Shown: positions 10,552-54,518, counted from the stretch's first letter. The stretch is DNA of 64,000 nucleotides from an uncultured Candidatus Berkelbacteria bacterium (GCA_963698075.1 OY969116.1:189492-253491), one strand, 5' to 3'. Numbers and translations are program-made. Notes: a model not told the origin generated them from the sequence alone.

Positions 10552-11978
10552 TTTTTCTTGTCAATCTTAAGATGAAGCTCTTTTAATTGTTTTTGGTCAT
10601 CAACTTCGGCCGGAGCTTTCATCATTAAATCGCGGCCATCGCCGGTTTTCGGAAAGGCAATTGTCTCACGAATTGAATCCTCGCCGGCCAAAATCATTAC
10701 CAAACGATCCAGGCCCCAGGCAATCCCGCCATGAGGCGGCACACCATATTCAAAAGCTTTGAGTAAGTGGCCAAAACGTTCCTGAATTTCTTTTTTGTTG
10801 TAGCCTAAAACTTCAAAGACCTTTTCTAATATCTTGGGGGCGTGACTGCGAATACTGCCACCACCGAGTTCTTGGCCATTTAAAATCAAGTCGTATTGGG
10901 TAGTCCGGATGGACTCAATCTCGCCTTTGAGAAACTTTTTTTTATCTTTCTTAACCGGATCAGAAAACGGATTATGAGTGAAGGTCCAATTAGCTTCGTT
11001 ATTTTTCTCAAAAAACGGAAAATCAATCACCCAGCAGAAAGCCAATTCGTCGGCATCCTTTTTATTGCGGCGTAAATCTGGTCGATCGGTATGATATTTT
11101 TTTTGAACTTCATCGAAACTGAGTACCGGAAATAGTTCTTCGGTAAGTTTTTTGTTGGGCGTAATTTTTTTAACAATCGCCTTGCCAAGTTTTTCATTAA
11201 TTTCCATGACGTCTTTTTGTTCGGCAAAACTCATCTCCAAATCAAGTTGGGTATGCTCGGGTTGGCGATCACCGCGCGGATCTTCATCGCGAAAACAACG
11301 GGCAATCTGAAAATATTTTTCCACTCCGGCAATCATGAGGAGTTGCTTAAATTGTTGTGGCGACTGCGGCAGAGCATAAAACTTTCCCGGCTGCTGACGC
11401 GAGGGCACTAAATAATCGCGGGCGCCTTCAGGAGTCGATTTAGTCAAATTAGGGGTCTCAATTTCCCAAAAACCTTCTCTATCGAGCCAGTCGCGAATAA
11501 ATTTGATCGTTTTGTACCTGAGTTCAAGGATCTTTTGCATCCGTTCGGTTCTAAGATCCAAATAGCGGTATTCCATCCGTAAATCTTCGGCAATTTTTTT
11601 GGTATCGGTCGTCAAATCAAAAGGTGGCGTGTTGGCTTCGGCTAAGATCTCGAGATTTTCTGCCTCAACCTCAACTTTTCCGGTGGCAATTTTTGAGTTG
11701 TCCATGCCCTCCGGCCGCTTTTTAACTGTACCAGATATCGCCACGACATATTCAGGCCGTAATTTATCGGCTTTCTCATGCAATTCTCCCGAAAGAACCA
11801 CTTGGACTAAACCAGAACGATCTCTTAAATCAATAAAAATCAGTTTGCCGTGATCACGGCGGGCATGAACCCAGCCGGCCAAATTGACCTTCTCGCCGAC
11901 CATTTCAGCTGTTTGAATATTTGCTACTTTCATAAATCCCTTCTTCTTTAAGATAACATAACTTTCCACAGTTGACAA
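10548..11978 (-). CDS. aspS: aspartyl-tRNA synthetase (short form lacking the GAD insertion)
   Basis: Class II aaRS motifs FRDEDPRGDRQPE, QLDLEMSF and GGGSIR...GLDRLVM. N-terminal OB fold. Probable true start at internal MKVAN (about 11933). Confidence 0.85.
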   Translation of the reverse strand: MSTVESYVILKKKGFMKVANIQTAEMVGEKVNLAGWVHARRDHGKLIFIDLRDRSGLVQVVLSGELHEKADKLRPEYVVAISGTVKKRPEGMDNSKIATGKVEVEAENLEILAEANTPPFDLTTDTKKIAEDLRMEYRYLDLRTERMQKILELRYKTIKFIRDWLDREGFWEIETPNLTKSTPEGARDYLVPSRQQPGKFYALPQSPQQFKQLLMIAGVEKYFQIARCFRDEDPRGDRQPEHTQLDLEMSFAEQKDVMEINEKLGKAIVKKITPNKKLTEELFPVLSFDEVQKKYHTDRPDLRRNKKDADELAFCWVIDFPFFEKNNEANWTFTHNPFSDPVKKDKKKFLKGEIESIRTTQYDLILNGQELGGGSIRSHAPKILEKVFEVLGYNKKEIQERFGHLLKAFEYGVPPHGGIAWGLDRLVMILAGEDSIRETIAFPKTGDGRDLMMKAPAEVDDQKQLKELHLKIDKKK

Positions 11979-12000
11979 TTAAAAATTTTGATGATAAGAT
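11972..12000 (+). promoter_or_regulatory. sigma70-like promoter (TTGACA-17-TAAGAT) for the GC-rich ORF at 12072
   Basis: Hexamers with 17-nt spacing. Followed by a GC-rich leader hairpin CCCTCG-GGC-GAGGG and the RBS ACAGGAG. Confidence 0.4.
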
Positions 12001-12071
12001 AAAAATTCGCTAAGGATCTCCCTCGGGCGAGGGGTTCTTTGGCAGAAACTATCACAGGAGACAGTAACAGC

Positions 12072-12329
12072 ATGAAGCATCGCAAAAGCCCGGTGCAAAG
12101 ACTTGAGGAGTTCATTCTGACAAATCGTGGCACAACTGGGACACCAAGGCTCTTCGCCTTGGCTACCGGCCTCGAAGTCGAGGTCGTCGATGCGGTCCTC
12201 CAGACCATCGAGAACCGCGTCGTGATCCAATTGCGCCCAGGCATCTGGGGTTACAACCCCGCTTACCGCCACGAGCGTCAACCTGTTCCGGCAGCCGAAC
12301 TCAACGCGGTTGCAACCGTATCCACCTGA
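12072..12329 (+). CDS. small GC-rich hypothetical protein (about 85 aa)
   Basis: ATG 10 nt after ACAGGAG. About 60 percent GC, unlike the flanking aspS and pheT. No recognisable motif. Confidence 0.3.
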   Translation: MKHRKSPVQRLEEFILTNRGTTGTPRLFALATGLEVEVVDAVLQTIENRVVIQLRPGIWGYNPAYRHERQPVPAAELNAVATVST

Positions 12330-12383
12330 ACCTGAGTACCGTCCCCCTGCCACCCGGCTGGGGGACATCTGTTTATTTATAGA

Positions 12384-14297
12384 CTATTTAGACCTTAATT
12401 TTGCTTGAAATTGATCTTCGACCTTCGAAATAACGTTATTAATTATCTCTCGAGTTTCAGTTTCTGCCAGTGGTTTCTTCATCCCTTGAAGCCAAACATG
12501 GAAGGCAAGATTCTTCGTCCCATTTTTAAATAAAAATTCGTCGAATATTTCAACTAAAAGAATCTTATCGTCAGTTGATTTAATCACTTTAGCAACTTTA
12601 TCCGACCCAATCGCATCTTTGACCACAAAGGCTAGATCGCGGACAGTAGGCGCAAATTGGGAGATCGGCTGATACTTGTTTTGAGAAATCTTAAGATTAT
12701 ATTTTTGCGGCTTGATTTTAATTTCACCAACATCAACAAGAACATATATTATTGGTCGGCGGATTTTGTATAAATTAAGGACGTTTTGGGGAACTTTTTG
12801 AGTCTTTTTTTTGACTCCTAAAAACTCCAGTCGCATCTTAAGATTGATATCATCTTTGTCGGTGGTGGCAATGCCAAGTTGCCATCTCTCGGTGTTCGAG
12901 GTAAAAACTTTCTCAATTTCAAAAATATTGATTTCCGGCGCCCAAGGATTTTTCGCCATGGTAGACAAAAGCGACGGTAAGATAGAAGGTCGCAAATATT
13001 GGGTTTCCGGCGACAGAGGATTGGCAACTTCAACGCAATCTGCGATTTCAGTTTCCAAAGCCTCAATTTTATCTCGCTCGGCAAAACTATAGGAATAAAT
13101 TTCCGTGAAATTAAAATCCGCTAAATAATCCTTAATATATTCCCTCTTTTGAAATTCTTCATTTTCTGTTTGTGACCCGCCTGCCGTCGAGGCAGGTTTG
13201 ATGCTTTGGATTTGAGATTTTCTAATGTTGTTGTATCCATACGATCTCGCAATTTCTTCGGCTAAATCTTGCCAAATTTTAACGTCGTAGGCACGATAAG
13301 ATGGGACGGTCACGACGTTATCTTTTACTTCAAAACCTAATCGCTTAAGATATTCATCAGCAGTTTCTAAAGTGACATCCGTGCCGAGCAATTTATTGAC
13401 TCGATCAATATCAAACTCAATTTTGTTAGACTTTAGATTTTCTGACTTTATATCAACTAAATCGCCAATTTTAGCGTTTGGACAGGATTCTTTGATCATC
13501 GTTGCCGCCATATCGATGCCTAAAATAGTTCCTTCGAAATCAACTCCTCGTTCGTATCGATAGGAGGCATCGGTAACATGATTAAGATATTTTGAGGTTT
13601 TTCTTATGAATATTGGGTCAAAGATGGCGCCTTGTAAAACGATGGTTTTAGTCTTTTCATCAACTTCGGATTTTATTCCGCCCATAATACCAGCGAGATC
13701 ATAGATTTTTTTATTATCTTCAATAATAATGGCGCCGTCGTCTAAAACGCGATTTTGACCGTCCAAAGTCATTACCTCTTCGCCCTTTTTTGCTTGGCGA
13801 ATCCGCATTAGACCATTTTTGATTTTGTCGTAATCAAAGGCGTGCAGCGGTTGACCGGTAGCCACCATCACATAGTTTGTAATATCAACAATATTATTAA
13901 TCGGCCGAAAACCATATGTTGCCAAACGTTCTTGAACCTCTTTTAAAGACTTCCCTATCTTGATATTATCGATAATTCGCGCCGTAAACCTTCGACAAAT
14001 TTCCGGCTTTTCAATTTTAATATCAATATTTTTCTCAATCTTTTCTGTTTTAAGTTGCAGTTTTAAGTTTTGCGTTTTAAGTTTTAAGTTATATAATGCA
14101 GCTATTTCTCTCGCGATTCCTAAAATCGAAAGGCAGTCTCCCCTATTCGGTGTAATTTCTAAATCAAGCACATAATCATCGCCTATTTTTTCAACCGATT
14201 CGACTTCATGTCCAAACAAACTTAAATCCTCCGCCAGCTGCTCTGGGGTTTTATCAATCTCGACATAGTCTTTTAGCCAGTTATAAGAAATTTTCAT
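12384..14297 (-). CDS. pheT: phenylalanyl-tRNA synthetase beta subunit
   Basis: 637-aa ORF with an N-terminal tRNA-binding-like region and B3/4 and B5-like regions; located next to pheS. Contains a low-complexity KL repeat encoded by a GTTTTAAGTT tandem repeat at 14041-14100. Confidence 0.8.
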   Translation of the reverse strand: MKISYNWLKDYVEIDKTPEQLAEDLSLFGHEVESVEKIGDDYVLDLEITPNRGDCLSILGIAREIAALYNLKLKTQNLKLQLKTEKIEKNIDIKIEKPEICRRFTARIIDNIKIGKSLKEVQERLATYGFRPINNIVDITNYVMVATGQPLHAFDYDKIKNGLMRIRQAKKGEEVMTLDGQNRVLDDGAIIIEDNKKIYDLAGIMGGIKSEVDEKTKTIVLQGAIFDPIFIRKTSKYLNHVTDASYRYERGVDFEGTILGIDMAATMIKESCPNAKIGDLVDIKSENLKSNKIEFDIDRVNKLLGTDVTLETADEYLKRLGFEVKDNVVTVPSYRAYDVKIWQDLAEEIARSYGYNNIRKSQIQSIKPASTAGGSQTENEEFQKREYIKDYLADFNFTEIYSYSFAERDKIEALETEIADCVEVANPLSPETQYLRPSILPSLLSTMAKNPWAPEINIFEIEKVFTSNTERWQLGIATTDKDDINLKMRLEFLGVKKKTQKVPQNVLNLYKIRRPIIYVLVDVGEIKIKPQKYNLKISQNKYQPISQFAPTVRDLAFVVKDAIGSDKVAKVIKSTDDKILLVEIFDEFLFKNGTKNLAFHVWLQGMKKPLAETETREIINNVISKVEDQFQAKLRSK

Positions 14298-14560
14298 TGT
14301 CTTCGGTATTTATATGTAAAAATTATCATTAATAAATTTGCAAAACAGAATAGAATTTCAACAATTGTATAGGATGTATTCTTAATGGCGATGGCATATA
14401 CTAGCAGTAATATATTTCCTAGCAACCACGCATACCATGCCAAGACACTAATACCAGTTGAATCTTTTACTTTAATCAGATGATAAAACTGAGGTAAATA
14501 TGCCGTGATTCCAATGACACCACCAATAACCGCCCCAATTGCCAAGATATTTATAATCAT
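14294..14560 (-). CDS. SemiSWEET/PQ-loop family small transporter-like protein
   Basis: 88 aa, 3 TM, PQ motif (YLPQFYHLIK) after TM1. Lies between pheS and pheT. Confidence 0.5.
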   Translation of the reverse strand: MIINILAIGAVIGGVIGITAYLPQFYHLIKVKDSTGISVLAWYAWLLGNILLLVYAIAIKNTSYTIVEILFCFANLLMIIFTYKYRRQ

Positions 14561-15277
14561 TTAAAATTGCTTTAAAAATCTTAAATCTCCGCTATACGAT
14601 AATCGAATATCATCAATATCAAAATATTGCATCATATAGCGGTCAATGCCCATGCCAAACATAATTGCCTGCCATTGGTCGGGATCGATACCCATATTTT
14701 TCAAAACAATCGGATGCCCCATGCCCGAGCCGAGCATTTCCTGCCATTTTTGGATTCCATTTTGATTTTTGATTTTTGATTTTTTATTTATCAATATATC
14801 CATATCCATTCCCGGCTCGACAAAAGGATAAAGATGCGGCCTAACACGGGTTTCAATTTTATCGCCAAAAAGTTCTTTCATATAACCATCGAGTAGTCCG
14901 ATCAAATGACCCATATTCAAATCTTTATCTACGGCAATGCCGTCAATTTGGTAAAAAGTGTGTTCGTGGACTGGGTCGGTGGCTTCATGGCGGAAACAGC
15001 GGCCGGGGATAATTAATCTAAATGGTGGTTTTAAATTATTTTCTTTGACAAATCGGACATCGACGGCCGTCGTATGAGTTCTTAAAATCTTTCCATCCTT
15101 GGTCCAAAAAGTATCTTGAATATCACGTGACGGATGAATCGCGGGAACATTCAGGGCATCAAAATTAAACCACTCAGTTTCAATTTCCGGACCTTCAACA
15201 ATTTGAAAACCTCTTTCGCTAAAATAACCAAGTGAGGCACGCATAAATTGAGTTAAAGGATGTAAATGACCTTTCAT
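14561..15277 (-). CDS. pheS: phenylalanyl-tRNA synthetase alpha subunit (catalytic core only)
   Basis: Class II motifs FRLIIPGRCFRHEATD, HEHTFYQIDG and GMGIDRY. Contains an in-frame (GATTTTT)x3 repeat at 14762-14790. Confidence 0.85.
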   Translation of the reverse strand: MKGHLHPLTQFMRASLGYFSERGFQIVEGPEIETEWFNFDALNVPAIHPSRDIQDTFWTKDGKILRTHTTAVDVRFVKENNLKPPFRLIIPGRCFRHEATDPVHEHTFYQIDGIAVDKDLNMGHLIGLLDGYMKELFGDKIETRVRPHLYPFVEPGMDMDILINKKSKIKNQNGIQKWQEMLGSGMGHPIVLKNMGIDPDQWQAIMFGMGIDRYMMQYFDIDDIRLSYSGDLRFLKQF

Positions 15278-15666
15278 AAGGTTCCTCGCTGATTAATCTT
15301 TTTCGAACGAAAAAATAATTCAAGCATCCCCACCGCCAAAACAAATAATATTGCCACCCACCAGCTTAAAACTCGAATCTGTTGTAAAAAGAGCAATCCC
15401 GTGAAAGCCAAAGCGATGATTAATGATTGCCTGAGCGTCGGCACGAGGTGGGCAAAAATAACTTCGCGGTTAGAAACCCAAACTTTTAAATAAAATCCGA
15501 TCAAACTAAAAAGAGCGGCTAAAAAAAGATAAACGGCCAAGTAAAATAAGATTAACATCCAAAAGGGGATCTGGAAAGGATTGACGTTAAAGATGATAAA
15601 AACCGCGAGCCCGGCCGTTAAAATTAAGGCGGCGTAGAGACTAAAAAGGTAAAGTCTTAAAATCAT
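15274..15666 (-). CDS. hypothetical membrane protein
   Basis: About 4 TM segments. Confidence 0.5.
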   Translation of the reverse strand: MILRLYLFSLYAALILTAGLAVFIIFNVNPFQIPFWMLILFYLAVYLFLAALFSLIGFYLKVWVSNREVIFAHLVPTLRQSLIIALAFTGLLFLQQIRVLSWWVAILFVLAVGMLELFFRSKKINQRGTL

Positions 15667-15989
15667 AAATTTTCTAATATTTCTTCGACGCGGTTAATTT
15701 TTTCAAGACCTCTATCGAGCTTAAAATCTAATTTCGGCGTATATTTCATCTCAAGTTTTCGACCTAAATAATGCTGAAAATCTTTCGTTTTTGCATTTAA
15801 CTTTCTTAAAACTTCATCTTGATACTGTTTTTCTAAACAAGAAATATAGATAATCGCATTTTTGAGATCCATTGTCAAATCAACATCAATAATTGTCACC
15901 ATCCCATAATCCTCAGCCAAATTCGCTTTAATCATTCCCGCCAGTATTTGTTTTAAGAGCTCGGCAACCTTTGCCACTCTTCTTGTCAT
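15663..15989 (-). CDS. rbfA: ribosome-binding factor A
   Basis: 108 aa; RbfA-like KH fold pattern, VAELLKQILAGMIK...VTIIDVDLTMDLKNAIIYIS. Confidence 0.7.
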   Translation of the reverse strand: MTRRVAKVAELLKQILAGMIKANLAEDYGMVTIIDVDLTMDLKNAIIYISCLEKQYQDEVLRKLNAKTKDFQHYLGRKLEMKYTPKLDFKLDRGLEKINRVEEILENL

Positions 15990-16050
15990 AAGTTTAAAAT
16001 AGCATATTTAGGCCGATTTTACAAAAAAATATTAAATTTAGCCAAAAGAT

Positions 16051-16079: not shown

Positions 16080-16115
16080 AAATTCGGGGCGCACTTACAA
16101 TCGGAGGTGAAGAGA

Positions 16116-17062: not shown

Positions 17063-17662
17063 TTATGTGACAAATCTGAGACGTCGGTGCAAACCATCGT
17101 AGGTGTAGTAGCGCTCAGATTCTTCGCCGAATTTGATCAAGTACAGCCGACCAAGCCAGAGGAAACCCCCGCGCTTAGTCGCTCCGACGGTCCGAGCTAA
17201 ACGGATTATATCTAACGGATCATTCTTCATCGGGTCCCTGACAACAGGGTCCCGGACGACAACGCAGGGTCGGCGAAAGCGACGTGACCGAATGTGAGAG
17301 ATGTTGGCTTGCTCAGATTGAATGGCTCCCTTAGCTTGCAGCGCACCGATAACATCCTCATTAATGCGAACCTCGATCGGTGTCTCAGAAACTTGCTCTT
17401 TAGAGACTTGAGCGAGCCGCATTAGCTGCTCGTCGAGCGAGCGAGTCGGATCGAGCAGCTGGAATGTGCCCGCCGGGTCCTGAACATGAAGTCTAATCGC
17501 CTCAACCGGAAGTTCCATTTTCTCGGCTAGGTTGCGAATGAAAACGTGAGTGTAGTAGCCGCGGCTCTCCATTTCAACTCTCGTAGTCCGGCCATCGCTG
17601 GCACGGAAGAGATATGTCACCTTTGGAGTATCAGATAGTTCCTTAGCCGGTATCTCTGCCAT
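17063..17662 (-). CDS. GC-rich hypothetical protein (199 aa)
   Basis: RBS GGAGGAG before the ATG. Contains a short direct repeat (VVVRDPVVRDP). Confidence 0.45.
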   Translation of the reverse strand: MAEIPAKELSDTPKVTYLFRASDGRTTRVEMESRGYYTHVFIRNLAEKMELPVEAIRLHVQDPAGTFQLLDPTRSLDEQLMRLAQVSKEQVSETPIEVRINEDVIGALQAKGAIQSEQANISHIRSRRFRRPCVVVRDPVVRDPMKNDPLDIIRLARTVGATKRGGFLWLGRLYLIKFGEESERYYTYDGLHRRLRFVT

Positions 17663-21932: not shown

Positions 21933-22373
21933 ATGGACGAGATTCACCAGTTTTACGCCGTCACCATCAGCGGCTCTCTTTATCTGGTAAGCGATAGACC
22001 TGACACCGAATCTCACGTTCCGATCGTCGAGAAAATCGTCATGATTGGCAGCAGTCGGCTTCCGGCCGGGACCAGACTAACCGGCGGCTCATTGGTTGGG
22101 ATTACCCCCGAGGGAATCCAGATGTTCAATCCGGATAAGCACAACCGCACCGCCTATACTGTTTCTACCAACTATTGGGGAGGCGGCTCTTCCCCAATCG
22201 TCGCCCTGTTCCGAGATGAGAGTGAAGCGAGGGAGTGCCTGGGCTCGTCCGACCTGAAGGCTTGGGACCCGAGGTGGCAAATGGCAACCAACCTTGTCCT
22301 CCAACTGATTGGTAGCGAGCATCCCATTTTCCGTCCTGAGCCACAACTCCTCGAGTCCACTCAATCAAGATAG
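21933..22373 (+). CDS. GC-rich hypothetical protein (146 aa)
   Basis: ORF after the promoter and RBS. GC-rich and foreign-looking relative to flanking infA and map. Confidence 0.5.
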   Translation: MDEIHQFYAVTISGSLYLVSDRPDTESHVPIVEKIVMIGSSRLPAGTRLTGGSLVGITPEGIQMFNPDKHNRTAYTVSTNYWGGGSSPIVALFRDESEARECLGSSDLKAWDPRWQMATNLVLQLIGSEHPIFRPEPQLLESTQSR

Positions 22374-22494: not shown

Positions 22495-24480
22495 TTGTCT
22501 AAACAAAATCGCCAAGTAACCCCAAGTGAATTCGAGGCTAAATGTACTAATCCTGGAGGAGAAGTCAGCCCAGAGGATCTGGCGAGACTTCTTCGAGAGC
22601 ATTTCCAGCTTGAGGGTGAAATTCAACATTTCTATCAGACTGATGTTTACTACGACACGACTTCATCACCAGATCTGCCGAGATTCCACCTAGGGGGGTC
22701 TGGTTTGAGTCTCCGTGTCCGCAGTTTCAGGGGTGGTGATTCGTATGAACTGACAGCTAAAAGGAATATCTCCGAGATCGGCGGCGTTTTCGTCAGAGAA
22801 GAAGTCCCGGCGATTATTCCGCTTTCTACGGATATCTCTTACCCGATTAACGACCAGAGGCCGAAGCTTCCACCACTCCTTATGATAAGAAAGTACATCA
22901 GCGGCAAGCTTTCACCTGTGGTTATGGTCGAGAATCATCGCATGGTCATCCGTGTTGAGATCGAGGGTCTCAAGATGAAGATCTGTCATGATACGGTTAC
23001 ATATCAAGATTTCCTGACGAACTTACAAGTACCAGATCACGAAATCGAGATTGAATTGCGGGGCCTAAATGCTCAACTGATGGAAGATGTTGTCAGACTT
23101 GTCAGGGAGAAATTCCCTAAACTGGTGGCTCAGCGCGAAGATAAGTATCGGCGCGCACTCGAGCTACTTTTCGGAGAACCGAAACATCGTTCACTTTCTT
23201 ACGTGCCACCGAGCTTTGAGATCGTCAGTCACGACGATATCGAAAGATGTCTTACCCAGGCACCTGAACCATATCGCCCACTGCTGGAGAAGCTCGTTCA
23301 AGATACCACAAGACGTTTAAGCTACAAGTCCCAACTCTCGGTCCTACCAATGCCAACTGATGTCAGACTGGCCCTTTGGCAGGAACGAACAATCGCCAAC
23401 CTGATTGAAGCCAACCCTTTCCTCTATTCTAGCGATCCAGTTCTGGCCGACAGCTGCTTTATCGCCGTTGATCTGCCAGAATCGCCTTTGAGATTCTTTG
23501 AGCATACTCGGGCTCAACATTCAATTGATGTTGCGACCTGGGCGATGACTTTGGCTCGCAAGTGCGGATTCGGAACAGATTCGATCGTTTATGTCGGTTG
23601 TGCTGGCTTAAGACATGACCTTGGACATCCCGCCCTTTGTCACAGTGGCGAAATCGTCGCTAAAGATGTGTGTGGGCTCGATCACGAAGAGAGAACCTTA
23701 CAACTAGTGGATGCAGATGCACCGATCCTATCTCGATACGACTTGGACATCGAGAAACTCAAAGCTATTCTCCGCGAAGAAGACATCGGTCAGATCCTGG
23801 CTTTGGCTGATACTCTTGCATATCTTATTCGAGATGGACAAGCCTGCGAGCGACCGCTTGATCCATCTGTTCCGCGAACAATTGCCGAACATTTTGATTA
23901 TGATTCATCTTCCAACGAGATTATCTTCGACGATGAGCTCATCAGTGCCCTTCAGACAATGCTTGATTTCCGCTTTGAGATGTTTCGGACTGTCTATTAC
24001 CATCCCTATTCCCGAATCGAAGAAGAAATGCAACAGAAAGCCATCAGATGGGCTCTCAGCCAAGGGGTGATAATCATCAGCGACCTTCTCGAGGGAGATG
24101 ATCCGACCCTTCTTAAGAAAATGGCTGAAATGGCAGCCAATGATCCGAAGCTCAAGCAACTGGTCGCCGGCTTTTTCCCGGATTACTGCGCTGTCTATCA
24201 CTACCGACCCCACATCACCTACAAAGGTGCCATTGACGCCGCCAGCATGGATAAAGCCTTAGTTGATGCCGGCTTTGACCCACTTGACTATATCATTAGT
24301 CTTCCAGACACGCGGGCTCATCGAAAAACCATCCGCGGGCGTCGCCTAAATGGCGAATCGGTTGAGCTAAGTGCCCGGAACGTCCGCAATTTCCATCAGT
24401 ATGACTCACAAACAATCATTGCTTTTGCTCCAACGCTTAAGCAACAAGATATCCTTCGAACTTTTCTTCACCCCCGCTAG
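22495..24480 (+). CDS. CYTH-like (triphosphate tunnel) N-terminal domain fused to a dGTPase/SAMHD1-type HD phosphohydrolase domain
   Basis: N-terminal SEFEAK (ExExK), LSLRVRS, ELTAKR and HEIEIEL (acidic C-terminal strand) follow the CYTH pattern. C-terminal RAQHSIDVA...LRHDLGHPALCH...DHEE matches the dNTP-triphosphohydrolase HD motifs. RBS GGAGG. Confidence 0.55.
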   Translation: MSKQNRQVTPSEFEAKCTNPGGEVSPEDLARLLREHFQLEGEIQHFYQTDVYYDTTSSPDLPRFHLGGSGLSLRVRSFRGGDSYELTAKRNISEIGGVFVREEVPAIIPLSTDISYPINDQRPKLPPLLMIRKYISGKLSPVVMVENHRMVIRVEIEGLKMKICHDTVTYQDFLTNLQVPDHEIEIELRGLNAQLMEDVVRLVREKFPKLVAQREDKYRRALELLFGEPKHRSLSYVPPSFEIVSHDDIERCLTQAPEPYRPLLEKLVQDTTRRLSYKSQLSVLPMPTDVRLALWQERTIANLIEANPFLYSSDPVLADSCFIAVDLPESPLRFFEHTRAQHSIDVATWAMTLARKCGFGTDSIVYVGCAGLRHDLGHPALCHSGEIVAKDVCGLDHEERTLQLVDADAPILSRYDLDIEKLKAILREEDIGQILALADTLAYLIRDGQACERPLDPSVPRTIAEHFDYDSSSNEIIFDDELISALQTMLDFRFEMFRTVYYHPYSRIEEEMQQKAIRWALSQGVIIISDLLEGDDPTLLKKMAEMAANDPKLKQLVAGFFPDYCAVYHYRPHITYKGAIDAASMDKALVDAGFDPLDYIISLPDTRAHRKTIRGRRLNGESVELSARNVRNFHQYDSQTIIAFAPTLKQQDILRTFLHPR

Positions 24481-32671: not shown

Positions 32672-32700
32672 TTGACAGAAGGAATCGTCTTTTATATAAT
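32672..32700 (+). promoter_or_regulatory. consensus sigma70 promoter (TTGACA-17-TATAAT), divergent from secY
   Basis: Exact consensus hexamers with 17-nt spacing. RBS AAGGGAG and the ATG at 32729 are downstream. Confidence 0.5.
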
Positions 32701-32728: not shown

Positions 32729-33124
32729 ATGGGACAGGTAACGATCGACTCTCATGACGGCGTACCACTAACTTGGCCGCACTGCAAAGATCTGCGCTGG
32801 TACCGATCCGGGAGTTTCAGTCTGAACGATCACGACCGTCAGGCGATTCTCAACCATTTCGGCATGAAGGATTGGTACTTCCGCCTCGAACGGGTAGACC
32901 GAACTTCTCCGGCCCAACTCCGGGAATTCGCCGAAAAAGGCATTAGCCTGGATCTGCTCGACAATGAGGAGCTTTTGACGCTTCATCAAAGAACGGCCAC
33001 GCAGTTCGGCATCGTCTTGACCGAAGACCAGGACCAGGAACTGATGACCCGTTGGAAAGGGTTGATGACGAAAGTCGGAGAGACGATCATCGCGCGGATG
33101 CGCCCGAATCCGAATATCACCTAA
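32729..33124 (+). CDS. GC-rich hypothetical protein (about 131 aa)
   Basis: MGQVTIDSHDGVPLTW...; compositionally foreign. Confidence 0.45.
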   Translation: MGQVTIDSHDGVPLTWPHCKDLRWYRSGSFSLNDHDRQAILNHFGMKDWYFRLERVDRTSPAQLREFAEKGISLDLLDNEELLTLHQRTATQFGIVLTEDQDQELMTRWKGLMTKVGETIIARMRPNPNIT

Positions 33125-33986: not shown

Positions 33987-34462
33987 ACTTAATTTATCTA
34001 ATTATTGCTGCGATTCTTCTTTTAGCCGGGGCGGCGAGCACGCTTTTGCTAGTTTTTCCGTCCTTGGCTTTTATGTTTTTGGTCGCTTTCGGCTACGCCT
34101 TACTCGATCATTTTGAACATCTTTCGGCGGTCGAACTGGGAATTTTGGCGGCCATGGCCATCTTAGCCGAAACCATTGATTATTTGGCCGGATTTATCGG
34201 TGCTAAAATCGGCGGTGCCAAAACTAAATCATTGCTTTTAGGAATAGTGGGGTTAATCATCGGAATGGTAATTTATCCACCCTTAGGCGGCATTTTTGGA
34301 CTCTTTTTAGGCATTGTCCTGGGTGAAATTTTGTCATACAAAGAATTAGCAAAAGCCTTCAGAGCCGGCTTCGCCGGGGTTCTTGGGTCACTTGCCGGTA
34401 CAATCGTTAAAATGATTTTAGCAGTTTTGTTTTTAGTCCTCTTTTTAGTCTTTACGCTTTAA
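33977..34462 (+). CDS. DUF456-like small membrane protein (paralog of 63357..63839)
   Basis: About 70 percent identical to the ORF at 63357-63839; Gly-rich TM helices. Confidence 0.6.
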   Translation: MALNLIYLIIAAILLLAGAASTLLLVFPSLAFMFLVAFGYALLDHFEHLSAVELGILAAMAILAETIDYLAGFIGAKIGGAKTKSLLLGIVGLIIGMVIYPPLGGIFGLFLGIVLGEILSYKELAKAFRAGFAGVLGSLAGTIVKMILAVLFLVLFLVFTL

Positions 34463-34787
34463 GGTATAACAAAAGATTACCAACGATGAGGGTTTCATCT
34501 TCGGTGTAGGGCGAGTAGAGGGCCCGCGCAGAGACTTCTTCCCAGGTTGGGTAATTGATGGCTGAGGTGATGATCCCGGCGCCATCGACATTGAGAATCC
34601 TTAGCAGGGTGAAGTCAGTCTCGAGCACGATCTCGCCCGGGCCATGGAAAGCCACATCTTGACCGCCCCATGATTCATCCAGCCGGATCTCGATTTGGCT
34701 ACCTCGCAAGCGGCCACCGATAGCGCCACAGCCGACAGGAGTGATAACCCGGGTACCAGGTTTCTTCCACTTGGGGCTCAAGGGCAT
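34452..34787 (-). CDS. GC-rich hypothetical protein
   Basis: Probable start MPLSPKWKKPG after RBS AAGGAGG. Promoter TTGACT-17-TATTAT upstream on the minus strand. Confidence 0.4.
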   Translation of the reverse strand: MPLSPKWKKPGTRVITPVGCGAIGGRLRGSQIEIRLDESWGGQDVAFHGPGEIVLETDFTLLRILNVDGAGIITSAINYPTWEEVSARALYSPYTEDETLIVGNLLLYLKA

Positions 34788-47851: not shown

Positions 47852-48343
47852 CTACGGTTTTCTGGTTATTTCGATGATCATTTCCTGCCTAGCATCGAAG
47901 ATGACGATGGGCTCGTTGAAACCTTCATCGACAACACCAATTGTTTCCCCTAAAAGGACGATTTCGAATACCCCAGGAAGGATCTCACCTTGGAAGTGAC
48001 CGTTGGTATCTGCGTAGAGGTTTTCAGAATTGGCATCTCTGTCGCGGTGTCTGAAAACAATCGTCACATTAGGAACGGGCCGACCGTTTGATTCCCTGAC
48101 AATTCCCTCGACCATACGTGAACCCGGGCCTCTGGGTCTAAAGCCGTTTCCTCTAACCGATATCATCGACTTGACATAATGACCATGCACGTCCCTCAAA
48201 GCAGGTTGCCCAGGCGTAGTCGGAAGCTGCGTCAATCCAATCCAAACCAGGCATACACCCATAAAAGACATCAGGAAAGCCATCAGCCAATCCTCCTGTC
48301 GTCCAGATGGAAATATCGTACCTGAAAATATAAATAAAGTCAA
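47852..48343 (-). CDS. GC-rich exported protein with a carboxypeptidase-regulatory-like (CarbopepD_reg) beta-sandwich motif
   Basis: Signal peptide MAFLMSFMGVCLVWIG; GRPVPNVTIVF...ADTNGHFQGEILPG matches the CarbopepD_reg pattern. Promoter TTGACT-17-TACGAT and RBS AGGAGGA upstream. Confidence 0.45.
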   Translation of the reverse strand: MTLFIFSGTIFPSGRQEDWLMAFLMSFMGVCLVWIGLTQLPTTPGQPALRDVHGHYVKSMISVRGNGFRPRGPGSRMVEGIVRESNGRPVPNVTIVFRHRDRDANSENLYADTNGHFQGEILPGVFEIVLLGETIGVVDEGFNEPIVIFDARQEMIIEITRKP

Positions 48344-49265: not shown

Positions 49266-49297
49266 AATTTCACCTCAACTCTAATATAGCACAAATT

Positions 49298-49326
49298 CTT
49301 GACATTTTCATCACTTTATGGTATAA
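49298..49326 (+). promoter_or_regulatory. consensus sigma70 promoter with extended -10 (TTGACA-17-TGGTATAAT)
   Basis: Exact hexamers plus TGn. Nearly identical to the promoter at 53766. Confidence 0.55.
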
Positions 49327-49335
49327 TCTCGGGTT

Positions 49336-49503
49336 ATGAATATCATCCTTGTTTTAATTTTAATGTTTTTTGCCAGCGCCTTGACGAGTTTTCTTATCTC
49401 CTGCGCTTGCTTAAGTTTGGCCACCAAAATCAGGGCTAATTTGTGGATTTTAATGATGATTGTCGGCATATTCATCCTTAGTTGGATAAGGTTGGCGATT
49501 TAA
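49336..49503 (+). CDS. possible small membrane protein (55 aa)
   Basis: MNIILVLILMFFASALTSFLISCACLSLATKIRANLWILMMIVGIFILSWIRLAI*; alternatively part of a long 5' UTR. Confidence 0.25.
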   Translation: MNIILVLILMFFASALTSFLISCACLSLATKIRANLWILMMIVGIFILSWIRLAI

Positions 49504-49509
49504 AAATCT

Positions 49510-49574
49510 CCTGAAGGGAAAATTGGTGGCGCGATATGACCGCCAGCAGTTTCTCCTTCGGGAGCTTACCAGGC
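49510..49574 (+). ncRNA. conserved structured leader element E1 (candidate cis-regulatory RNA)
   Basis: CCUGAAGGGAAAAUUGGUGG-[hairpin UGGCG..CGCCA]-CAGUUUCUCCUUCGGGAG, shared with E2. The outer helix CUGAAGG/CCUUCGG competes with a local CUCC-UUCG-GGAG tetraloop hairpin. Confidence 0.45.
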
Positions 49575-49630
49575 AGGCTTTACCTAGTAAGGCACGCTTG
49601 GAAGAGAAGCACAAGAGGAGGCAGGCTTCC

Positions 49631-50170
49631 ATGTCGGAGGCAAGCTTCGGTGAGCAGTCAAGTTGGGAAGATGTCGGTCGTCTTCTGACACAACTGGGGG
49701 CGTTCTTCAGGAAGGCCGCGCGTAGACTCGATTCAGAGTTCCTCCAAGCCTTCACTGACTTCACTCCCTTTAGGGAGGCAGTCGCTGCGACCTATCGGAA
49801 ATGGGCACTACGACTGGTGCAGGAAGCCTTCGGTGTCTGGGTCCTGGAGAGCAGGTGGGCCCAACTCAGGGTATACGACCAACGCAAAACCCCCACTCAT
49901 GTCATGGAGGCCATGAGGGCGCTCGAGAGGATGGTCAAAGACGGCCGCGAGGGGCCCAAGCTTCACGTCCAAGATCATCATTTCACAACTCGAAGCTGCA
50001 GCACCAACATCGTCCAGGTGCTCTTCGCGAATAATCGCGTGCTCTATGTCAGATTCGGAGAGCGTGGAGACGTCTACTGGGATATCTACGGCGCAGCCGT
50101 CTGCCCCATCACCGGTGATGGACCATGTGAGCTCGAAGACATGGTCGCGGCCGTCAAACGCCTCTTCTGA
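49631..50170 (+). CDS. GC-rich hypothetical protein (179 aa)
   Basis: ATG after RBS AAGAGGAGG; no recognisable motif. Confidence 0.5.
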   Translation: MSEASFGEQSSWEDVGRLLTQLGAFFRKAARRLDSEFLQAFTDFTPFREAVAATYRKWALRLVQEAFGVWVLESRWAQLRVYDQRKTPTHVMEAMRALERMVKDGREGPKLHVQDHHFTTRSCSTNIVQVLFANNRVLYVRFGERGDVYWDIYGAAVCPITGDGPCELEDMVAAVKRLF

Positions 50171-50186
50171 CCCTATCTCGAACCCA

Positions 50187-50220
50187 AGACCGCCGGAGCG
50201 GTTAATTGCGCCGGCGGTCT
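50187..50220 (+). terminator. GC hairpin after gene 49631..50170
   Basis: AGACCGCCGG-(14 nt)-CCGGCGGTCT, a 10-bp stem. Confidence 0.45.
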
Positions 50221-50252
50221 CTCATATCTAGAGAGCTTTCTATACCATGGAT

Positions 50253-50281
50253 TGACAAAGGAACAGCTTTATGCTACACTC
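50253..50281 (+). promoter_or_regulatory. sigma70-like promoter (TTGACA-17-TACACT)
   Basis: Hexamers upstream of E2 and the gene at 50438. Confidence 0.4.
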
Positions 50282-50327
50282 AAGGAGTTTTGAAGCTGAA
50301 GAATAGTCCGCCAGTCGGCGGATTTCC

Positions 50328-50391
50328 CCTGAAGGGAAAATTGGTGGTGATATCATTATTGGATTATCGCCGGCAGTTTCTCCTTCGGGAG
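50328..50391 (+). ncRNA. conserved structured leader element E2 (paralog of E1)
   Basis: Same outer helix and UUCG hairpin as E1. The inner hairpin differs in sequence but preserves pairing (GGUGAUA...UAUCGCC versus UGGCG...CGCCA), a compensatory change. Confidence 0.45.
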
Positions 50392-50437
50392 ACGGGTGTA
50401 TCCCGGAAACAACACCGCTTAACAATTGAGGGATAAC

Positions 50438-51028
50438 ATGCGAGCCTTCGTACGGGGCACACTCTGGACATTGCTGGTGTTGGGCGCCATCGTGGCGGCC
50501 TTCTACGCCAGCATCAAGTACCTAGATGGCGCCTGCTGTCTGGGACTGGAACTCCTGATGGTATTGATCGCTTCTCTGGTCCTCGGCATCGTCCCGGCGG
50601 CGGTCATCGATCTGTTCTTCGCGAAGATCGTCAGGCGCCCCAGGTGGGGAGCAATCGGATTCTACACCGTACTCGGTGCCGTTTTCATCTTCATCCTGGT
50701 ACCGCAGCTCGGTATGACCCACAAGTTGGTACCCTTGGCGCGCAACTTCCACCAAGCGTGCCAGGCCGATCACCGGGAATACCAGTCGGATGACCCCGAG
50801 GTAGTCGTGGCTGATTTCGGCGGCTCGCTGGACAACATCACGTTCGAACGTGACGACGTCCTGCGGGCCGACCAGTATCTCGGCCTCGGCGGGTGGCACT
50901 ACAAGAATAGTAGCGCTACAGTCGGGATGCTGTACCTCTACACCTACCTCCCCAAGACGACTTTCGATCGGTGGTTCCCCGACCCTTACCGGCCGGCGGA
51001 ATCCCAAGAAGCAAAGGGGCGTGGCTGA
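50438..51028 (+). CDS. GC-rich membrane protein (2-3 TM plus soluble C-terminal domain)
   Basis: MRAFVRGTLWTLLVLGAIVAAFY...; RBS GAGGGA. Confidence 0.5.
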   Translation: MRAFVRGTLWTLLVLGAIVAAFYASIKYLDGACCLGLELLMVLIASLVLGIVPAAVIDLFFAKIVRRPRWGAIGFYTVLGAVFIFILVPQLGMTHKLVPLARNFHQACQADHREYQSDDPEVVVADFGGSLDNITFERDDVLRADQYLGLGGWHYKNSSATVGMLYLYTYLPKTTFDRWFPDPYRPAESQEAKGRG

Positions 51029-51111
51029 CGCCACGCCCCGACGTACCCTTCTTACGGAAAAAGTGACTGCGAAATATCGTCGTTACTTTCTCCGCAAAAG
51101 AAGTCTTATAC

Positions 51112-51140
51112 AAAAAAACCGCCCAAAGAGCGGTCTTTTT
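51112..51140. terminator. bidirectional rho-independent terminator (also ends fusA)
   Basis: AAAAAAA-CCGC-CCAAAGA-GCGG-TCTTTTTCTTT. Confidence 0.6.
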
Positions 51141-51163
51141 CTTTATTATTTTCGTTTTTTACC

Positions 51164-53263
51164 TTATTTTTGTTTCCCCTCAATAATCTTTTGCGCTATA
51201 TGACGAGGCACTTCGGCGTAGTGGGAAAATTCCATAGTGAAGCTTGCCCGGCCTTGGGACATACTCCGTAAAGAAGTGGCGTAGCCAAACATTTCCGCCA
51301 AAGGCACTTCGCCGTCAATCACCTTCATTTTCGCTCGATCCGACATTTCTTTAATATGAGTTCTCTTAGAATTTAAATCCCCCAAAACATCACCCATAAA
51401 ATCTTCTGGCACGACGACTTCAATCCGCATAATTGGCTCCAATAAAACCGGATTGGCTTTTTTAACTCCGGCCTGCAAAGCAAGTGAGCCGGCAATTTGG
51501 AAGGCAATTTCCGAAGAATCAACTTCGTGAAAAGAGCCGTCGTACAAAGTTGTTGACATATCCACCAACGGATAGCCGGCAATCACGCCTCGGGTCATTG
51601 CTTCTTTAATCCCCTTTTCCACTGCCGGAATAAATTCTTTAGGAATTGTGCCGCCGACAATTTTATCGATAAATTCAAAACCTTTGCCGCGTTCCATTGG
51701 GTTTAATTCTAACCAAACATGGCCGTATTGACCGCGGCCGCCTGTTTGACGGATATATTTACCTTCAGCTTTAATACCGAGCGCTTTGATCGTTTCTTTG
51801 TAAGCAACTTGCGGGGCGCCGACATTGGCCTCAACTTTAAATTCCCGTTTCATCCGGTCAACAATAATTTCCAAATGTAGCTCGCCCATGCCGGAAATAA
51901 TTGTCTGACCGGTTTCCGGATCGCCTTTGACCCGAAAGGTCGGATCTTCTTGAGCTAAGCGATTTAAAGCAATGCCCATTTTTTCCTGATCCTGCTTGGT
52001 TTTTGGTTCAATCGCCACACCAATTACGGGCTCTGGGAAAGTAATTGCCTCCAAAATTATTGGCGATTTTTCGTCACATAAAGTATCGCCGGTAGTAGTA
52101 TCTTTTAGGCCCACAGCCGCGGCAATTTCGCCGGCAAAAACTTCGCTGACTTCTTCGCGATGTTGAGCATGCATTCTGACAATTCGGCCGATGCGTTCTT
52201 TTTTGTCTTTAGAAGAATTAAGGACATATGTGCCGGCTTTTAACATCCCAGAATAAACTCTAAAAAAAGTTAAAGTCCCAACAAATGGATCAGCAGCGAC
52301 TTTAAAAGCCAAAGCGGCGAATGGTTCGGCGTCATCGGGCGATCTTTCGAGTTCTTCTTCGGTTCTTGGCTTCCAGCCCTTGACTGGGGGAATATCGAGC
52401 GGTGAAGGCAAATATTCAACCACTGCATCCAAAACCTGCTGCACGCCTTTGTTTTTTAGGGCTGACCCACAGAAAACTGGTACTAATTTATTGGCAATGG
52501 TGGCATTTCGAGAACTTTTTTTAATTCTTCATAGGTCGGTTTTTGACCTTCTAAATATTTATGGAGTAACTCATCATCTTGCTCGGCGATTTTTTCGACT
52601 AAAATTTGATGGAGTTTTTCCGCTTTTTCTTTGAAGCTCCGCCGGGATTTCGAGTTCTTTAACATCTTGACCTTTATCGCCATGGAATTCATAAGCTTTC
52701 ATTTTCAAAACATCGATCACTTGCGAAAATTTTTCTTCATGGGCGTTGGGGAATTGGATGGCAACGGCGTTGTCAGTTAAACGTTCTTTAATTGAATCAA
52801 ATGACTTATTAAAATCTGCGCCCATGCGGTCAAGTTTATTAATAAAACAAATCCGTGGCACCCCGAATTTATCCGCCTGATGCCAAACCGTTTCCGATTG
52901 CGGCTCAACCCCGGCAACGCCGTCAAAAACCACGATCGCGCCATCAAGAACGCGCAAAGAGCGCTGGACTTCGGCGGTAAAATCAATGTGACCGGGAGTA
53001 TCGATAATATTAAAGCGAATTTTTTCTCGAGGATTATCACGGCTGGCCCAAAAACAAGTGGTGGCGGCTGAAGTAATCGTAATTCCCCGCTCGCGCTCCT
53101 GGGCCATCCAGTCCATCACGGCCGCCCCTTCGTGAACTTCGCCGATTTTATAGGTTTTGCCGGTATAAAACAGAACCCGCTCGGTCATCGTCGTCTTCCC
53201 AGCGTCGATATGGGCAATGATGCCAAAATTACGGGTTTTTTCAAGTGAATATTCTCGTGCCAT
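51164..53263 (-). pseudogene. fusA: elongation factor G fusA, two frameshifts (near 52650 and 52455)
   Basis: N-terminal [17 protein letters not shown] and NKLDR. Middle [29 protein letters not shown]. Then [36 protein letters not shown] continues to the C-terminus in other frames. A one-nucleotide deletion (CC to C) lies at about 52455. Confidence 0.85.
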
Positions 53264-53404
53264 AATCTCCGATTTAAATTAAAAATTTCCCCTTTGTCTC
53301 TCTTATTTTATCAAAGAAATTGGATGAAGTCAACTAAAATACCACCATATTTCAGGTGGCATTTTAGCTTTTGGTTAACCAAAAATCTCTTTTTGCCAGA
53401 AAAT

Positions 53405-53689
53405 CTACTGCTTGGCCGCGGCTCCCGGAATGGTTCCTTTTTTGCGGCCGATGATCAAATAGAGAATCGGCCCGATCCAAGCAATCAAGATGATAAGAAC
53501 CAGCCAGAGAATCTTGTCATTTGGGTTGGTAAACTGGCGGCGAATGCAGTCTATCAGGGCCCAAAGCCATAAGATGAACCCCACGCCCGCAAAAATCACC
53601 CAGAAAATTACCCAGCCGATGACCAAAGTTCCGGCCACAGCAGTGGCAGCCGCCGCTGCCGCGGGATCATAACTTGCAGAATAGTCCAT
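53405..53689 (-). CDS. PLD-nuclease N-terminal domain (PLDc_N)-like small membrane protein
   Basis: LWALIDCIRRQFTNPNDKILWLVLIILIAWIGPILYLIIGRK matches the PLDc_N motif. Confidence 0.55.
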   Translation of the reverse strand: MDYSASYDPAAAAAATAVAGTLVIGWVIFWVIFAGVGFILWLWALIDCIRRQFTNPNDKILWLVLIILIAWIGPILYLIIGRKKGTIPGAAAKQ

Positions 53690-53765
53690 TAAACCTCCTT
53701 TTTTCTCGACCTAATTACAGTTTCGCATAAGATAAAAAATTTGTCAAATCTAATGTCTTTTAAGC

Positions 53766-53794
53766 TTGACTTTTACCATAAAATATGGTATAAT
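53766..53794 (+). promoter_or_regulatory. consensus sigma70 promoter with extended -10 (TTGACT-17-TGGTATAAT)
   Basis: Near-duplicate of the promoter at 49298. Followed by a GC-rich 5' leader of about 110 nt. Confidence 0.5.
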
Positions 53795-53905
53795 CCTTAT
53801 GTCAGAGCATCGCTCGGGTATAACCTGTAGCCTGCTCGGCTAACCCACTCACCGATCAATGGCCCTATGGGGACCGGAGACGGAAAGAAGAAAGGGAGAA
53901 GTGAG

Positions 53906-54379
53906 ATGTCTAGCATTCGAGTCGTCGGACCCGACGGACGTCCTGTTTCTGAAGAGCAGTACCCCATGGATGGACCAGCCCCAAAGTTGGAAAATGGGCA
54001 GAGTTTCTCGCTCTTCGAGATCCTCTCGAACCCAATCTTCATCAATGGAACGCCACTGGAACACATCCACGGAACGGCCCGAGCAACGCTGTATCCCCGG
54101 AACACTGCCGTCTGTAAGGATCGAGTGCGCTATTTCGAGCTCAGCATCCGGTCGCGGAGCTGGGACGATATGATCGCGCTCTTCCACGAAGTCCGTAGGC
54201 TCGTCTACAGCTATGAGCCGCTAATACACAAGCCGGCGCCGCCCGCACCGCCGAAGCCGGAGGATCCGTCCTTCATGGGCGGCATCAAGTGGCTGATCCG
54301 CGGAATCTGGTATGATGTCTGCCGCGTCTGGCTCTACTGCGGCCACATCTTGGACCGAGCCTACGAAGACGGCGTGTAG
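53906..54379 (+). CDS. GC-rich hypothetical protein (157 aa)
   Basis: MSSIRVVGPDGRPV... after RBS AAGGGAG. Confidence 0.5.
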   Translation: MSSIRVVGPDGRPVSEEQYPMDGPAPKLENGQSFSLFEILSNPIFINGTPLEHIHGTARATLYPRNTAVCKDRVRYFELSIRSRSWDDMIALFHEVRRLVYSYEPLIHKPAPPAPPKPEDPSFMGGIKWLIRGIWYDVCRVWLYCGHILDRAYEDGV

Positions 54380-54403
54380 AGTAGTCAACCGACCGCTTCA
54401 CTG

Positions 54404-54427
54404 GGGCGCCCTCTTCCGAGGGCGCCC
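54404..54427 (+). terminator. GC hairpin terminator after 53906..54379
   Basis: GGGCGCCCTC-TTCC-GAGGGCGCCC, a 10-bp stem with T-rich sequence downstream. Confidence 0.55.
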
Positions 54428-54518
54428 TTCTCATATCTGAAATACTTTTTTTATTACCAGAAAAGATTCCGTCAGGAATCTTTCTTCATAATCTTATGAG
54501 ATTTTCCAATTTTAAAAA

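Follow-up and report, generated by a model that had tools for sequence, protein, structure and literature searches.

The window analyzed here, a stretch of 64,000 nucleotides from an uncultured “Candidatus Berkelbacteria” bacterium (GCA_963698075.1, OY969116.1:189492-253491; positions are counted from its first letter), belongs to a bacterial chromosome and averages 43% GC (guanine plus cytosine); its ribosomal and translation-factor operons are interrupted by a series of short, largely GC-rich modules. Read along the minus strand from about 64 to 10 kb, the host gene order is rplJ/L, rpoB, rpoC, rpsL, rpsG, fusA, and tuf, then the S10/spc/alpha ribosomal operons, continuing through secY, adk, map, infA, rpsM to rplQ, rplM, rpsI, rbfA, pheS, pheT, and aspS. 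The modules comprise 11 coding units, which we named M1, M2a, M2b, M3a, M3b, M4, M5, M6, M7a, M7b, and M8. They are mostly antisense to the surrounding operon and, as an initial annotation of the window had proposed and gene order in relatives confirms, they separate the conserved pairs aspS/pheT, rbfA/rpsI, infA/map, secY/rplO, tuf/fusA, and fusA/rpsG. The host genome is reduced (<1 Mb), with a source contig of 929,420 bp, and the closest public genomes are uncultured Patescibacteria (candidate phyla radiation, CPR) assemblies, with identities of 78-79% for rpsG and up to 84% for map; a metagenome scan with the map protein returned only relatives of at most 66% identity. Closer relatives were located by protein search and contig look-ups, and the comparisons below use single contigs of diverged relatives (L002 to L004, L083, L084, L162 to L166, and L169 to L172), together with independent contigs of the same sequence from the Logan assembly of run ERR10755944 (L001 and L174 to L176).

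Two-state GC segmentation delimited blocks at 12008-12366 (59% GC), 17023-17606 (54.5%), 21918-22362 (56%), 32708-33112 (56%), 34502-34800 (59%), 49525-51048 (57%), and 53801-54427 (59%). The initial annotation had counted at least eight GC-rich modules in a backbone of 35-40% GC; seven blocks at 54-59% uphold most of that count, the region at 47.8-48.35 kb is only 48% GC, and the backbone measures about 43%. The proposed modules at 16.0-17.8 kb and at 21.7-24.5 kb each combine a GC-rich part with a stretch of lower GC, 43-45% (16.0-17.0 kb) and 49% (22.5-24.5 kb), respectively.

The modules are compositionally foreign to their host. Their composition-normalized dinucleotide distances (delta*) to host core genes are 184-289, compared with 50-110 for host control segments, and the ratio Arg/(Arg+Lys) is 0.70 in module proteins versus 0.34 in host proteins. 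A non-host dinucleotide signature is also seen in the less GC-rich units M2a, M3b, and M6 and in an AT-rich insertion (h25292), and conserved clade-specific genes of the window (h27834 to h30535, h33240 to h37038, h48372, and a PLDc_N-family gene of 53% GC) have a host-like signature. Each module lies at a delta* of 63-133 from the pooled modules, but the pooled dinucleotide ratios are all near 1, a generic pattern which marks the modules as not host-like without proving one donor; a common donor was therefore rejected as a reading of the dinucleotide result. In the chosen reading frames, GC content by codon position follows GC1 > GC2 < GC3, with GC3 between 0.56 and 0.77 (GC1/GC2/GC3 of 0.58/0.45/0.71 in M8 and 0.61/0.41/0.77 in M7b), and, given the known relation between codon-position and genome GC, this points to real genes of a genome with 55-62% GC. 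Transferred genes are usually AT-rich relative to their host.

The first two modules lie in the aspS/pheT and rbfA/rpsI slots. M1 is a plus-strand unit, antisense to pheT-aspS, with a predicted promoter at 11972..12000 (TTGACA-17-TAAGAT with TG, given as -35, spacer length, and -10), an 85-amino-acid (aa) open reading frame (ORF) at 12072..12329 (58% GC, GC3 0.65), and a terminator hairpin at 12341..12366 (-21.5 kcal/mol, z -3.4). Its promoter is conserved in L162, as is a terminator-like hairpin followed by TTCTTT (12019-12034; -15.2 kcal/mol) between promoter and ribosome-binding site, which may be an attenuator or a 5′ stabilizer. A single-sequence AlphaFold2 model of M1 shows three helices at low confidence (predicted local distance difference test score of 56), and the product is possibly a small helix-turn-helix or DNA-binding protein. 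M2a, on the plus strand, consists of three small membrane-protein ORFs (16117-16529, 16551-16715, and 16722-16997; 43-45% GC) with candidate promoters at 16051-16101; its ORF at 16107-16529 is non-host in dinucleotide signature, and the stretch at 16551-16997 is nearer the host. The 199-aa ORF of M2b (17063..17662, minus strand) has a predicted promoter at 17699-17727 (TTGACT-17-TATTGT) and a bidirectional terminator at 17021-17045, and it likely encodes an N-terminal ubiquitin-like beta-grasp domain followed by a C-terminal domain without assignment.

The infA/map slot holds two plus-strand units. M3a encodes 146 aa (21933..22373; 55% GC) behind a -10 element TATAAT at 21889-21894, with a terminator at 22391-22415, and the whole 577-bp unit is bracketed by a direct repeat matching at 11 of 12 positions (ACCCCTTTACAA at 21838-21849 and ACCCCTTTGACA at 22427-22438), the right-hand copy of which overlaps the -35 element of the conserved M3b promoter. 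This repeat could be a duplication from microhomology-mediated insertion. M3b (22495..24480; 661 aa, 49% GC; promoter TTGACA-17-TATGTT at 22433-22461) has CYTH, HD, and HD-associated regions and a weak dGTPase resemblance in Pfam, PADLOC, and NCBIfam, and its product is likely a CYTH-HD nucleotide phosphohydrolase.

Beyond map lies h25292 (25292-27076), a 594-aa ORF of 36% GC with a 2-hydroxyacid-dehydrogenase NAD-binding region, between adk and map, which are adjacent or overlapping, without h25292, in every relative examined. Being AT-rich with a non-host signature, h25292 indicates that slot cargo is not invariably GC-rich. A non-host signature at 36-37% GC is also seen at 3108-4080, where an ORF with a GIY-YIG domain (3108-3476) is followed by a proteasome-subunit-like ORF (3481-4080). 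Between secY and adk, the block at 27834-31074 encodes four or five membrane-anchored Ser/Thr/Pro-rich proteins, including a LysM protein and another with a faint likeness to the Tricorn N-terminal region; this block is conserved in the clade (L083, L162 to L166, L171, and L172) and has a host-like signature.

In the rplO-secY slot, M4 has an exact TTGACA-17-TATAAT promoter (32672..32700, plus strand), which lies back-to-back with the conserved secY promoter and is missing from the region before secY in L163 and L164, followed by a 131-aa ORF (32729..33124; GC3 0.67) and a terminator at 33148-33169. M5, a 111-aa ORF on the minus strand (34452..34787) with a promoter at 34818-34846 (TTGACT-17-TATTAT with TG), overlaps at its 3′ end the convergent DUF456 gene, and the same gene was called in the independent assembly. 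The slot further contains, at 33240-37508, the DUF456 gene, a TspO/MBR gene, a gene for a weakly SpoIIIAH-like protein, and others, all with host-like signature. None of the relatives has these genes in that slot, so the 4.8-kb slot mixes relocated native-type genes with M4 and M5.

The remaining modules lie around fusA. M6 (47852..48283, minus strand; 143 aa, 48% GC; promoter 48315-48343, terminator 47808-47836) has a hydrophobic N-terminal segment and a sub-threshold CarboxypepD_reg match; M2a and M7b likewise contain hydrophobic segments. M7a (49523..50170, plus strand; GC3 0.67) encodes 215 aa from TTG at 49523 or 179 aa from ATG at 49631, sits downstream of a host gene for 55 aa, and appears to use that gene's promoter. 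M7b (50426..51028, plus strand; GC3 0.77), a predicted membrane protein of 196-200 aa, has a promoter-like TTGACA-17-TACACT at 50252-50280, a hairpin at 51016-51039, and a bidirectional terminator at 51118-51134 that it shares with fusA. M8 is a 157-aa orphan (53906..54379, plus strand; GC3 0.72) whose promoter (53766..53794, plus strand; TTGACT-17-TGGTATAAT) diverges from the conserved PLDc_N promoter and whose tandem terminators (54403-54428 and 54459-54485) have folding energies of -24.8 and -13.8 kcal/mol. The neighboring small PLDc_N-family membrane protein gene (53405-53689, between rpsG and fusA; GC3 0.63) is conserved in L002 to L004, as is the promoter that belongs to it. It could represent a slot gene that was acquired long ago and is now completely domesticated.

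By sequence prediction, most of the blocks come with a promoter of sigma70 type, a Shine-Dalgarno site, and a stable terminator hairpin. Terminator hairpins of -13.7 to -24.8 kcal/mol (z -2.7 to -5.2) bear out the initial annotation for M1, M2b, M3a, M4, M6, M7b, and M8; none was found at M3b or M5. Of the near-consensus promoters that it described, the TTGACA-17-TATAAT sites at 32672 and 49299 are exact, and TTGACT-17-TATAAT is found at 53766; M3a has only its -10 element, with a weak -35. A scan of the window for TTGACA-N17-TATAAT with at most one mismatch returned five matches versus 0.45 expected, at M4 (32672) and M8 (53766) and at the host tuf operon (47737), at another host operon promoter (62794; both of these on the minus strand), and at the host 55-aa gene (49299). 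The last of these had been taken for a module part, and it instead drives a conserved host unit on the plus strand (promoter 49299-49327, 55-aa membrane ORF 49336-49503) that is found in L002 and L003, has 37% GC and a host-like signature, and is preceded by a comparable promoter in L003. Consensus-type signals also occur at secY (TTGACT-16-TAAGAT), h33240 (TTGACA-16-TATGAT), and PLDc_N (a conserved TTGACA). The uniformity of regulatory parts, earlier read as a sign of common origin, matches the host's own consensus, as used at tuf, secY, PLDc_N, and h33240.

Judged from their sequences, the modules encode genuine proteins. M1 has a ratio of nonsynonymous to synonymous substitution rates (dN/dS) of 0.21 relative to its L162 orthologue, with indels of 9, 6, and 18 nucleotides, all multiples of 3, and M2b has dN/dS of 0.21-0.27 against its orthologues. 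No Rfam family scored above threshold in any GC block, and a single tRNA-Ala (155-230) was the only RNA found in Rfam and tRNA scans of the window. Structured noncoding RNA was effectively ruled out on these grounds, together with codon-position GC (dN/dS 0.2-0.3, in-frame indels, and no Rfam match). Family scans of the module proteins (Pfam, PHROGs, PADLOC, and NCBIfam) matched only M3b, besides the sub-threshold M6 hit; apart from M1, M2b, and M3b, the modules likely encode small membrane or soluble proteins without functional assignment.

The assembly also appears sound at the modules. The independent ERR10755944 contigs match the window at 99.9-100% identity without gaps across module junctions, covering 21710-25373 (M3a, M3b, and map), 31381-35048 (secY, M4, and M5), 47366-51278 (tuf, M6, M7a, M7b, and fusA), and 53120-55492 (M8, rpsG, and rpsL), with the M8 junctions confirmed by contig L001. 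The chimeric assembly that the initial annotation had wished to see excluded is refuted by these contigs through the junctions of M3a/M3b, M4/M5, M6/M7a/M7b, and M8, and it is further countered by homologues of M1, M2b, and M3b in the same slots of assemblies from other samples. Elsewhere in the window, fusA is frameshifted twice, at an A5 and an A7 run (52440-52620), with the shifts compensating each other, and the frame changes twice in rpoB (59300-59860) and five times in rpoC (55490-59230), genes whose L002/L004 orthologues are single intact ORFs; at these sites, which lie outside the independent contigs, the frameshifts look like homopolymer indel errors of the assembly and not biology.

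Across the clade, the same slots (pheT-downstream, rpsI-rbfA, map-infA, rplO-secY, rpsG-fusA, and fusA-tuf) hold homologous, different, or no cargo. The search for empty sites in sister genomes that had been suggested at the outset found them in L002 to L004, L083, L162 to L166, and L172. M6, M7a, M7b, and M8 are not in L002 to L004, where the rpsG-PLDc_N spacer is 66-130 bp, about 216 bp lie between fusA and the 55-aa ORF, and tuf is preceded by a gap of about 150 bp. Since the M8 promoter and both of its terminators are absent there as well, they came in or arose along with the insert. M2a, M3, M4, M5, and h25292 are not found in L162 to L166 and L083 (M2a specifically not in L162, L164, and L166); map and infA are spaced by 68-131 bp in L162, L164, and L166, and rplO directly adjoins secY in L083, L164, L166, L171, and L172, which makes the whole 32.7-37.5 kb block lineage specific. 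Accessory content also varies among genomes in the rplO-secY, map-infA, rpsI-rbfA, PLDc_N-fusA, and fusA-tuf intervals. Alternative cargo includes a DUF3175 protein and a 275-aa protein in the rplO-secY slot of L163, two AT-rich ORFs between PLDc_N and fusA in L004, and, in L171, three slots with small ORFs whose GC is 54-57%; in the slot corresponding to that of M1, the 88-aa ORF of L171 gave no BLASTP alignment to M1. In L084 (map 53% identical), about 8.5 kb (10765-19269) separate map and infA, between which M3a and M3b lie in the window. Tandem units of about 40 bp were noted in the rplO-secY spacer of L164 (4520-4720; TATACCTTATTCTAACCCCTGGGGTTAAA...) and of L171 (17500-17660; GCGGCACGATAACTGTGCCGATATATCATAGGAGTGTTATA).

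The modules differ in age. M3a, M4, M5, M6, M7a, M7b, and M8 are lineage specific, absent from every sampled relative, and M1, M2b, and M3b are, on the sequence comparisons, long-standing residents that codiverged with the host. M1 and M2b are shared with the closest relative, L162 (map 84% identical): the M1 orthologue lies there between pheT and aspS on the opposite strand (58% aa identity, 61% GC) and the M2b orthologue between rpsI and rbfA (73% identity, 56% GC). Further M2b homologues occupy the same rpsI-rbfA slot in L169 (about 50% identity) and L172 (32% identity; 60% GC and GC3 0.71 on a contig of 40% GC). Only four members of the M2b family were found when 1.84 billion representative proteins were scanned in full with HMMER. 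The dN of M2b is 1.9-2.7 times that of six flanking host proteins in all six pairs of the window, L162, L169, and L172, and the branching order that it implies is that of the host proteins; this is the mark of vertical codivergence. For M3b, a set of 5.8 billion proteins contains no more than three homologues (67, 61, and 41% identity), all of them in the map-infA slot (of L169, L170, and L171) on the strand opposite the operon, with a nearly identical promoter in L170. Because M3a is not in L169 and L170, both of which carry M3b, it would be a younger insertion nested beside M3b. A uniformly recent arrival of all modules, as first supposed, thus does not fit the identical positions of M1, M2b, and M3b in relatives.

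The old residents have also remained GC-rich. M2b orthologues have GC3 of 0.51-0.71 compared with 0.30-0.45 in their flanks, with synonymous sites at or beyond saturation, and M1 has GC3 of 0.65-0.70 at a synonymous divergence (dS) of about 1.6. A rough two-state decay calculation predicts that so much divergence would have brought GC3 almost to the host level, with a few points of difference at most. The old residents therefore owe their GC-richness to more than residual donor composition. As the flanking genes are not GC enriched, simple biased gene conversion is also disfavored.

As to how the modules move, no integrase or transposase was found in the modules or their neighbors in Pfam, PHROGs, NCBIfam, and PADLOC scans, in agreement with the initial annotation. 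At the borders, neither target duplications nor inverted repeats exceeded the lengths found in shuffled sequence, save for the M3a repeat, and comparison of modules with one another at the DNA and protein levels revealed nothing common beyond promoter hexamers. Two classes of candidate were considered and rejected: a transposon, insertion sequence, or miniature inverted-repeat transposable element, as there are no terminal inverted repeats or consistent target-site duplications at the borders, and an integron cassette, as there is no end sequence common to the modules and no integrase. No literature relevant to GC-rich insertions in CPR ribosomal operons was found.

We consider it probable that the modules are moron-like accessory cassettes that occupy insertion hotspots between core genes of a Patescibacteria chromosome. 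Morons, a concept of Hendrix and colleagues (summarized in PMC2920897), are units with their own promoter and terminator and deviant GC that lie between conserved genes. Like them, the modules are one or a few genes between adjacent conserved genes that are contiguous in relatives, with different cargo at the same entry points, a composition that differs from that of the neighbors, and their own predicted transcriptional signals. Unlike phage morons, they reside in a backbone of bacterial ribosomal-protein and translation-factor operons, without phage genes or phage relatives having been found; their cargo is GC-richer than the backbone, and some units are old and vertically inherited. A second parallel is offered by gene-transfer hotspots without mobile elements, which act via recombination in flanking core genes and are commoner in transformable species (Oliveira et al. 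2017, PMC5635113). Shared with these are the use of the same core-gene pairs, the turnover of content among relatives, and the lack of an integrase or transposase. Homologous recombination in the flanks is the proposed driver of those hotspots; for the modules, it is a process that we infer. The modules differ from such hotspots in lying inside the ribosomal super-operon of a genome of <1 Mb as single-gene insulated cassettes. They differ also in cargo, being GC-rich where transferred genes are mostly AT-rich compared with their host. Classical genomic islands, integron cassettes, and transposons resemble the modules as compositionally deviant DNA with accessory genes, but have features that the modules lack, namely, an integrase, a tRNA-adjacent attachment site, an attC-like repeat, terminal inverted repeats, or a consistent target-site duplication. 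What is unexpected is that a reduced genome should house the modules within its ribosomal super-operon and that vertically inherited members have long been GC-rich.

If the modules are such cassettes, foreign DNA may first have been captured by illegitimate or microhomology-mediated joining, after which cassettes would have spread or been replaced by homologous recombination in the ultraconserved flanking genes following DNA uptake, without an element-encoded recombinase. Ribosomal and translation genes would make good recombination anchors, being so conserved. A survivorship filter might then operate, in that inside essential operons only cassettes with host-type signals and terminators would be tolerated; cassettes with their own signals would survive because they leave flanking transcription undisturbed, and such a filter could produce uniform regulatory parts without a common origin.

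Several points weigh against the cassette reading. The donor has not been found, with a whole-database search of the lineage-specific proteins having been made for M8 only, and the mechanism of acquisition is one that we infer. The promoters and terminators are consensus predictions only. M1 and M2b are GC-rich after divergence ranging from dS of about 0.6 to beyond saturation, and foreign DNA that is still ameliorating is insufficient to account for this. The divergence of the M3b copy in L171 is roughly double that expected from host distances, which makes the history of M3b less clear. Finally, absence in relatives could be due to loss there and not to gain here.

The strongest rival, which we regard as unlikely but still deserving of weight, holds that the modules are native clade-specific genes kept GC-rich by codon or mRNA-structure selection, by biased gene conversion, or by recurrent conversion with a GC-rich extrachromosomal copy, and that the relatives have lost them or diverged very rapidly. 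It would account well for the codivergence of M2b with the host in four lineages at undiminished GC3 despite saturation, for the GC3 of M1, for the occurrence of M3b in the same slot of four genomes, and for PLDc_N, a conserved slot gene that combines 53% GC with a host-like signature. It fares less well with the seven genes that are absent from all sampled relatives and have no homologues: in 5.8 billion proteins, M8 matched only itself, and M3a, M4, M5, M6, M7a, and M7b, for which no whole-database search was made, have none in viral, phage, and family libraries. Nor does it readily explain the nesting of M3a, within its short direct repeat, in the older M3b slot or the unlikeness of the module signature to that of other clade-specific genes, and its variant of biased gene conversion is opposed by the flanks, which are not GC enriched.

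That all modules are recent and came from one GC-rich donor, or by one mobilization mechanism with standardized parts, as the initial annotation had suggested, is improbable. The modules are indeed alike in GC (54-60%) and in dinucleotides, as their distances to the pool show, and the -10 regions at 49299 and 53766 resemble each other; however, a 12-mer common to two sites is expected by chance in 64 kb by our calculation, the 49299 promoter is that of a conserved host gene, and host genes use the same consensus signals. The widely different ages of the modules, the codivergence of M2b with the host, the generic pooled signature, and the lack of common sequence, end repeats, or consistent target duplication further contradict a single source.

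We give little credence to the modules being phage gene remnants, or true morons left by prophages of the clade. Their moron-like architecture (own promoter and terminator, deviant GC, and entry hotspots between conserved genes; PMC2920897) and the weak likeness of the M3b HD domain to defense-type dGTPases are compatible with this origin, and an absence of detectable homologues is typical for poorly sampled phage gene pools. However, none of the eight module proteins tested matched a viral contig collection, none of the three tested by tblastn matched a phage genome collection, and no module matched a phage protein family library; no structural, integrase, or repressor phage genes lie nearby, and the modules are single-gene units scattered across 42 kb of essential operons.

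An artifact (chimerism with a GC-rich organism) or structured noncoding RNA, which the sharp GC steps, the frequency with which GC-rich intergenic blocks of AT-rich genomes are structured RNAs, and the indel errors in fusA, rpoB, and rpoC might have suggested, is very improbable in view of the independent contigs that span the junctions of nine of the eleven genes, the same-slot homologues in other samples, the codon periodicity, the purifying selection, the in-frame indels, and the lack of Rfam matches.

Taken as accessory cassettes, the modules mean that the most conserved operons of a sub-megabase genome serve as landing pads for accessory genes without recognizable mobile-element machinery, and their insulated form suggests that essential operons accommodate none but self-terminating units. 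Slot genes with lasting GC-richness under vertical descent run contrary to the usual picture of AT-rich acquired genes that drift toward host composition. More speculatively, and with the odds clearly against it at present, the clade may keep fixed slots in the ribosomal super-operon for lineage-restricted, orphan-like genes that are actively held at high GC over long evolutionary times (GC3 as high as 0.7 where the genomes have about 40% GC). If true, this would call for a gene-specific force on base composition in a minimal genome, with selection for GC or for particular codons and repeated conversion by a coevolving GC-rich extrachromosomal reservoir as candidates, and the usual decay of foreign DNA toward the composition of its host would not account for it. 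The slots offer a concrete route to study the origin of CPR orphan genes, and M2b, with its probable ubiquitin-like fold, and M3b, with its CYTH-HD architecture, are defined clade-restricted proteins that provide direct experimental targets.

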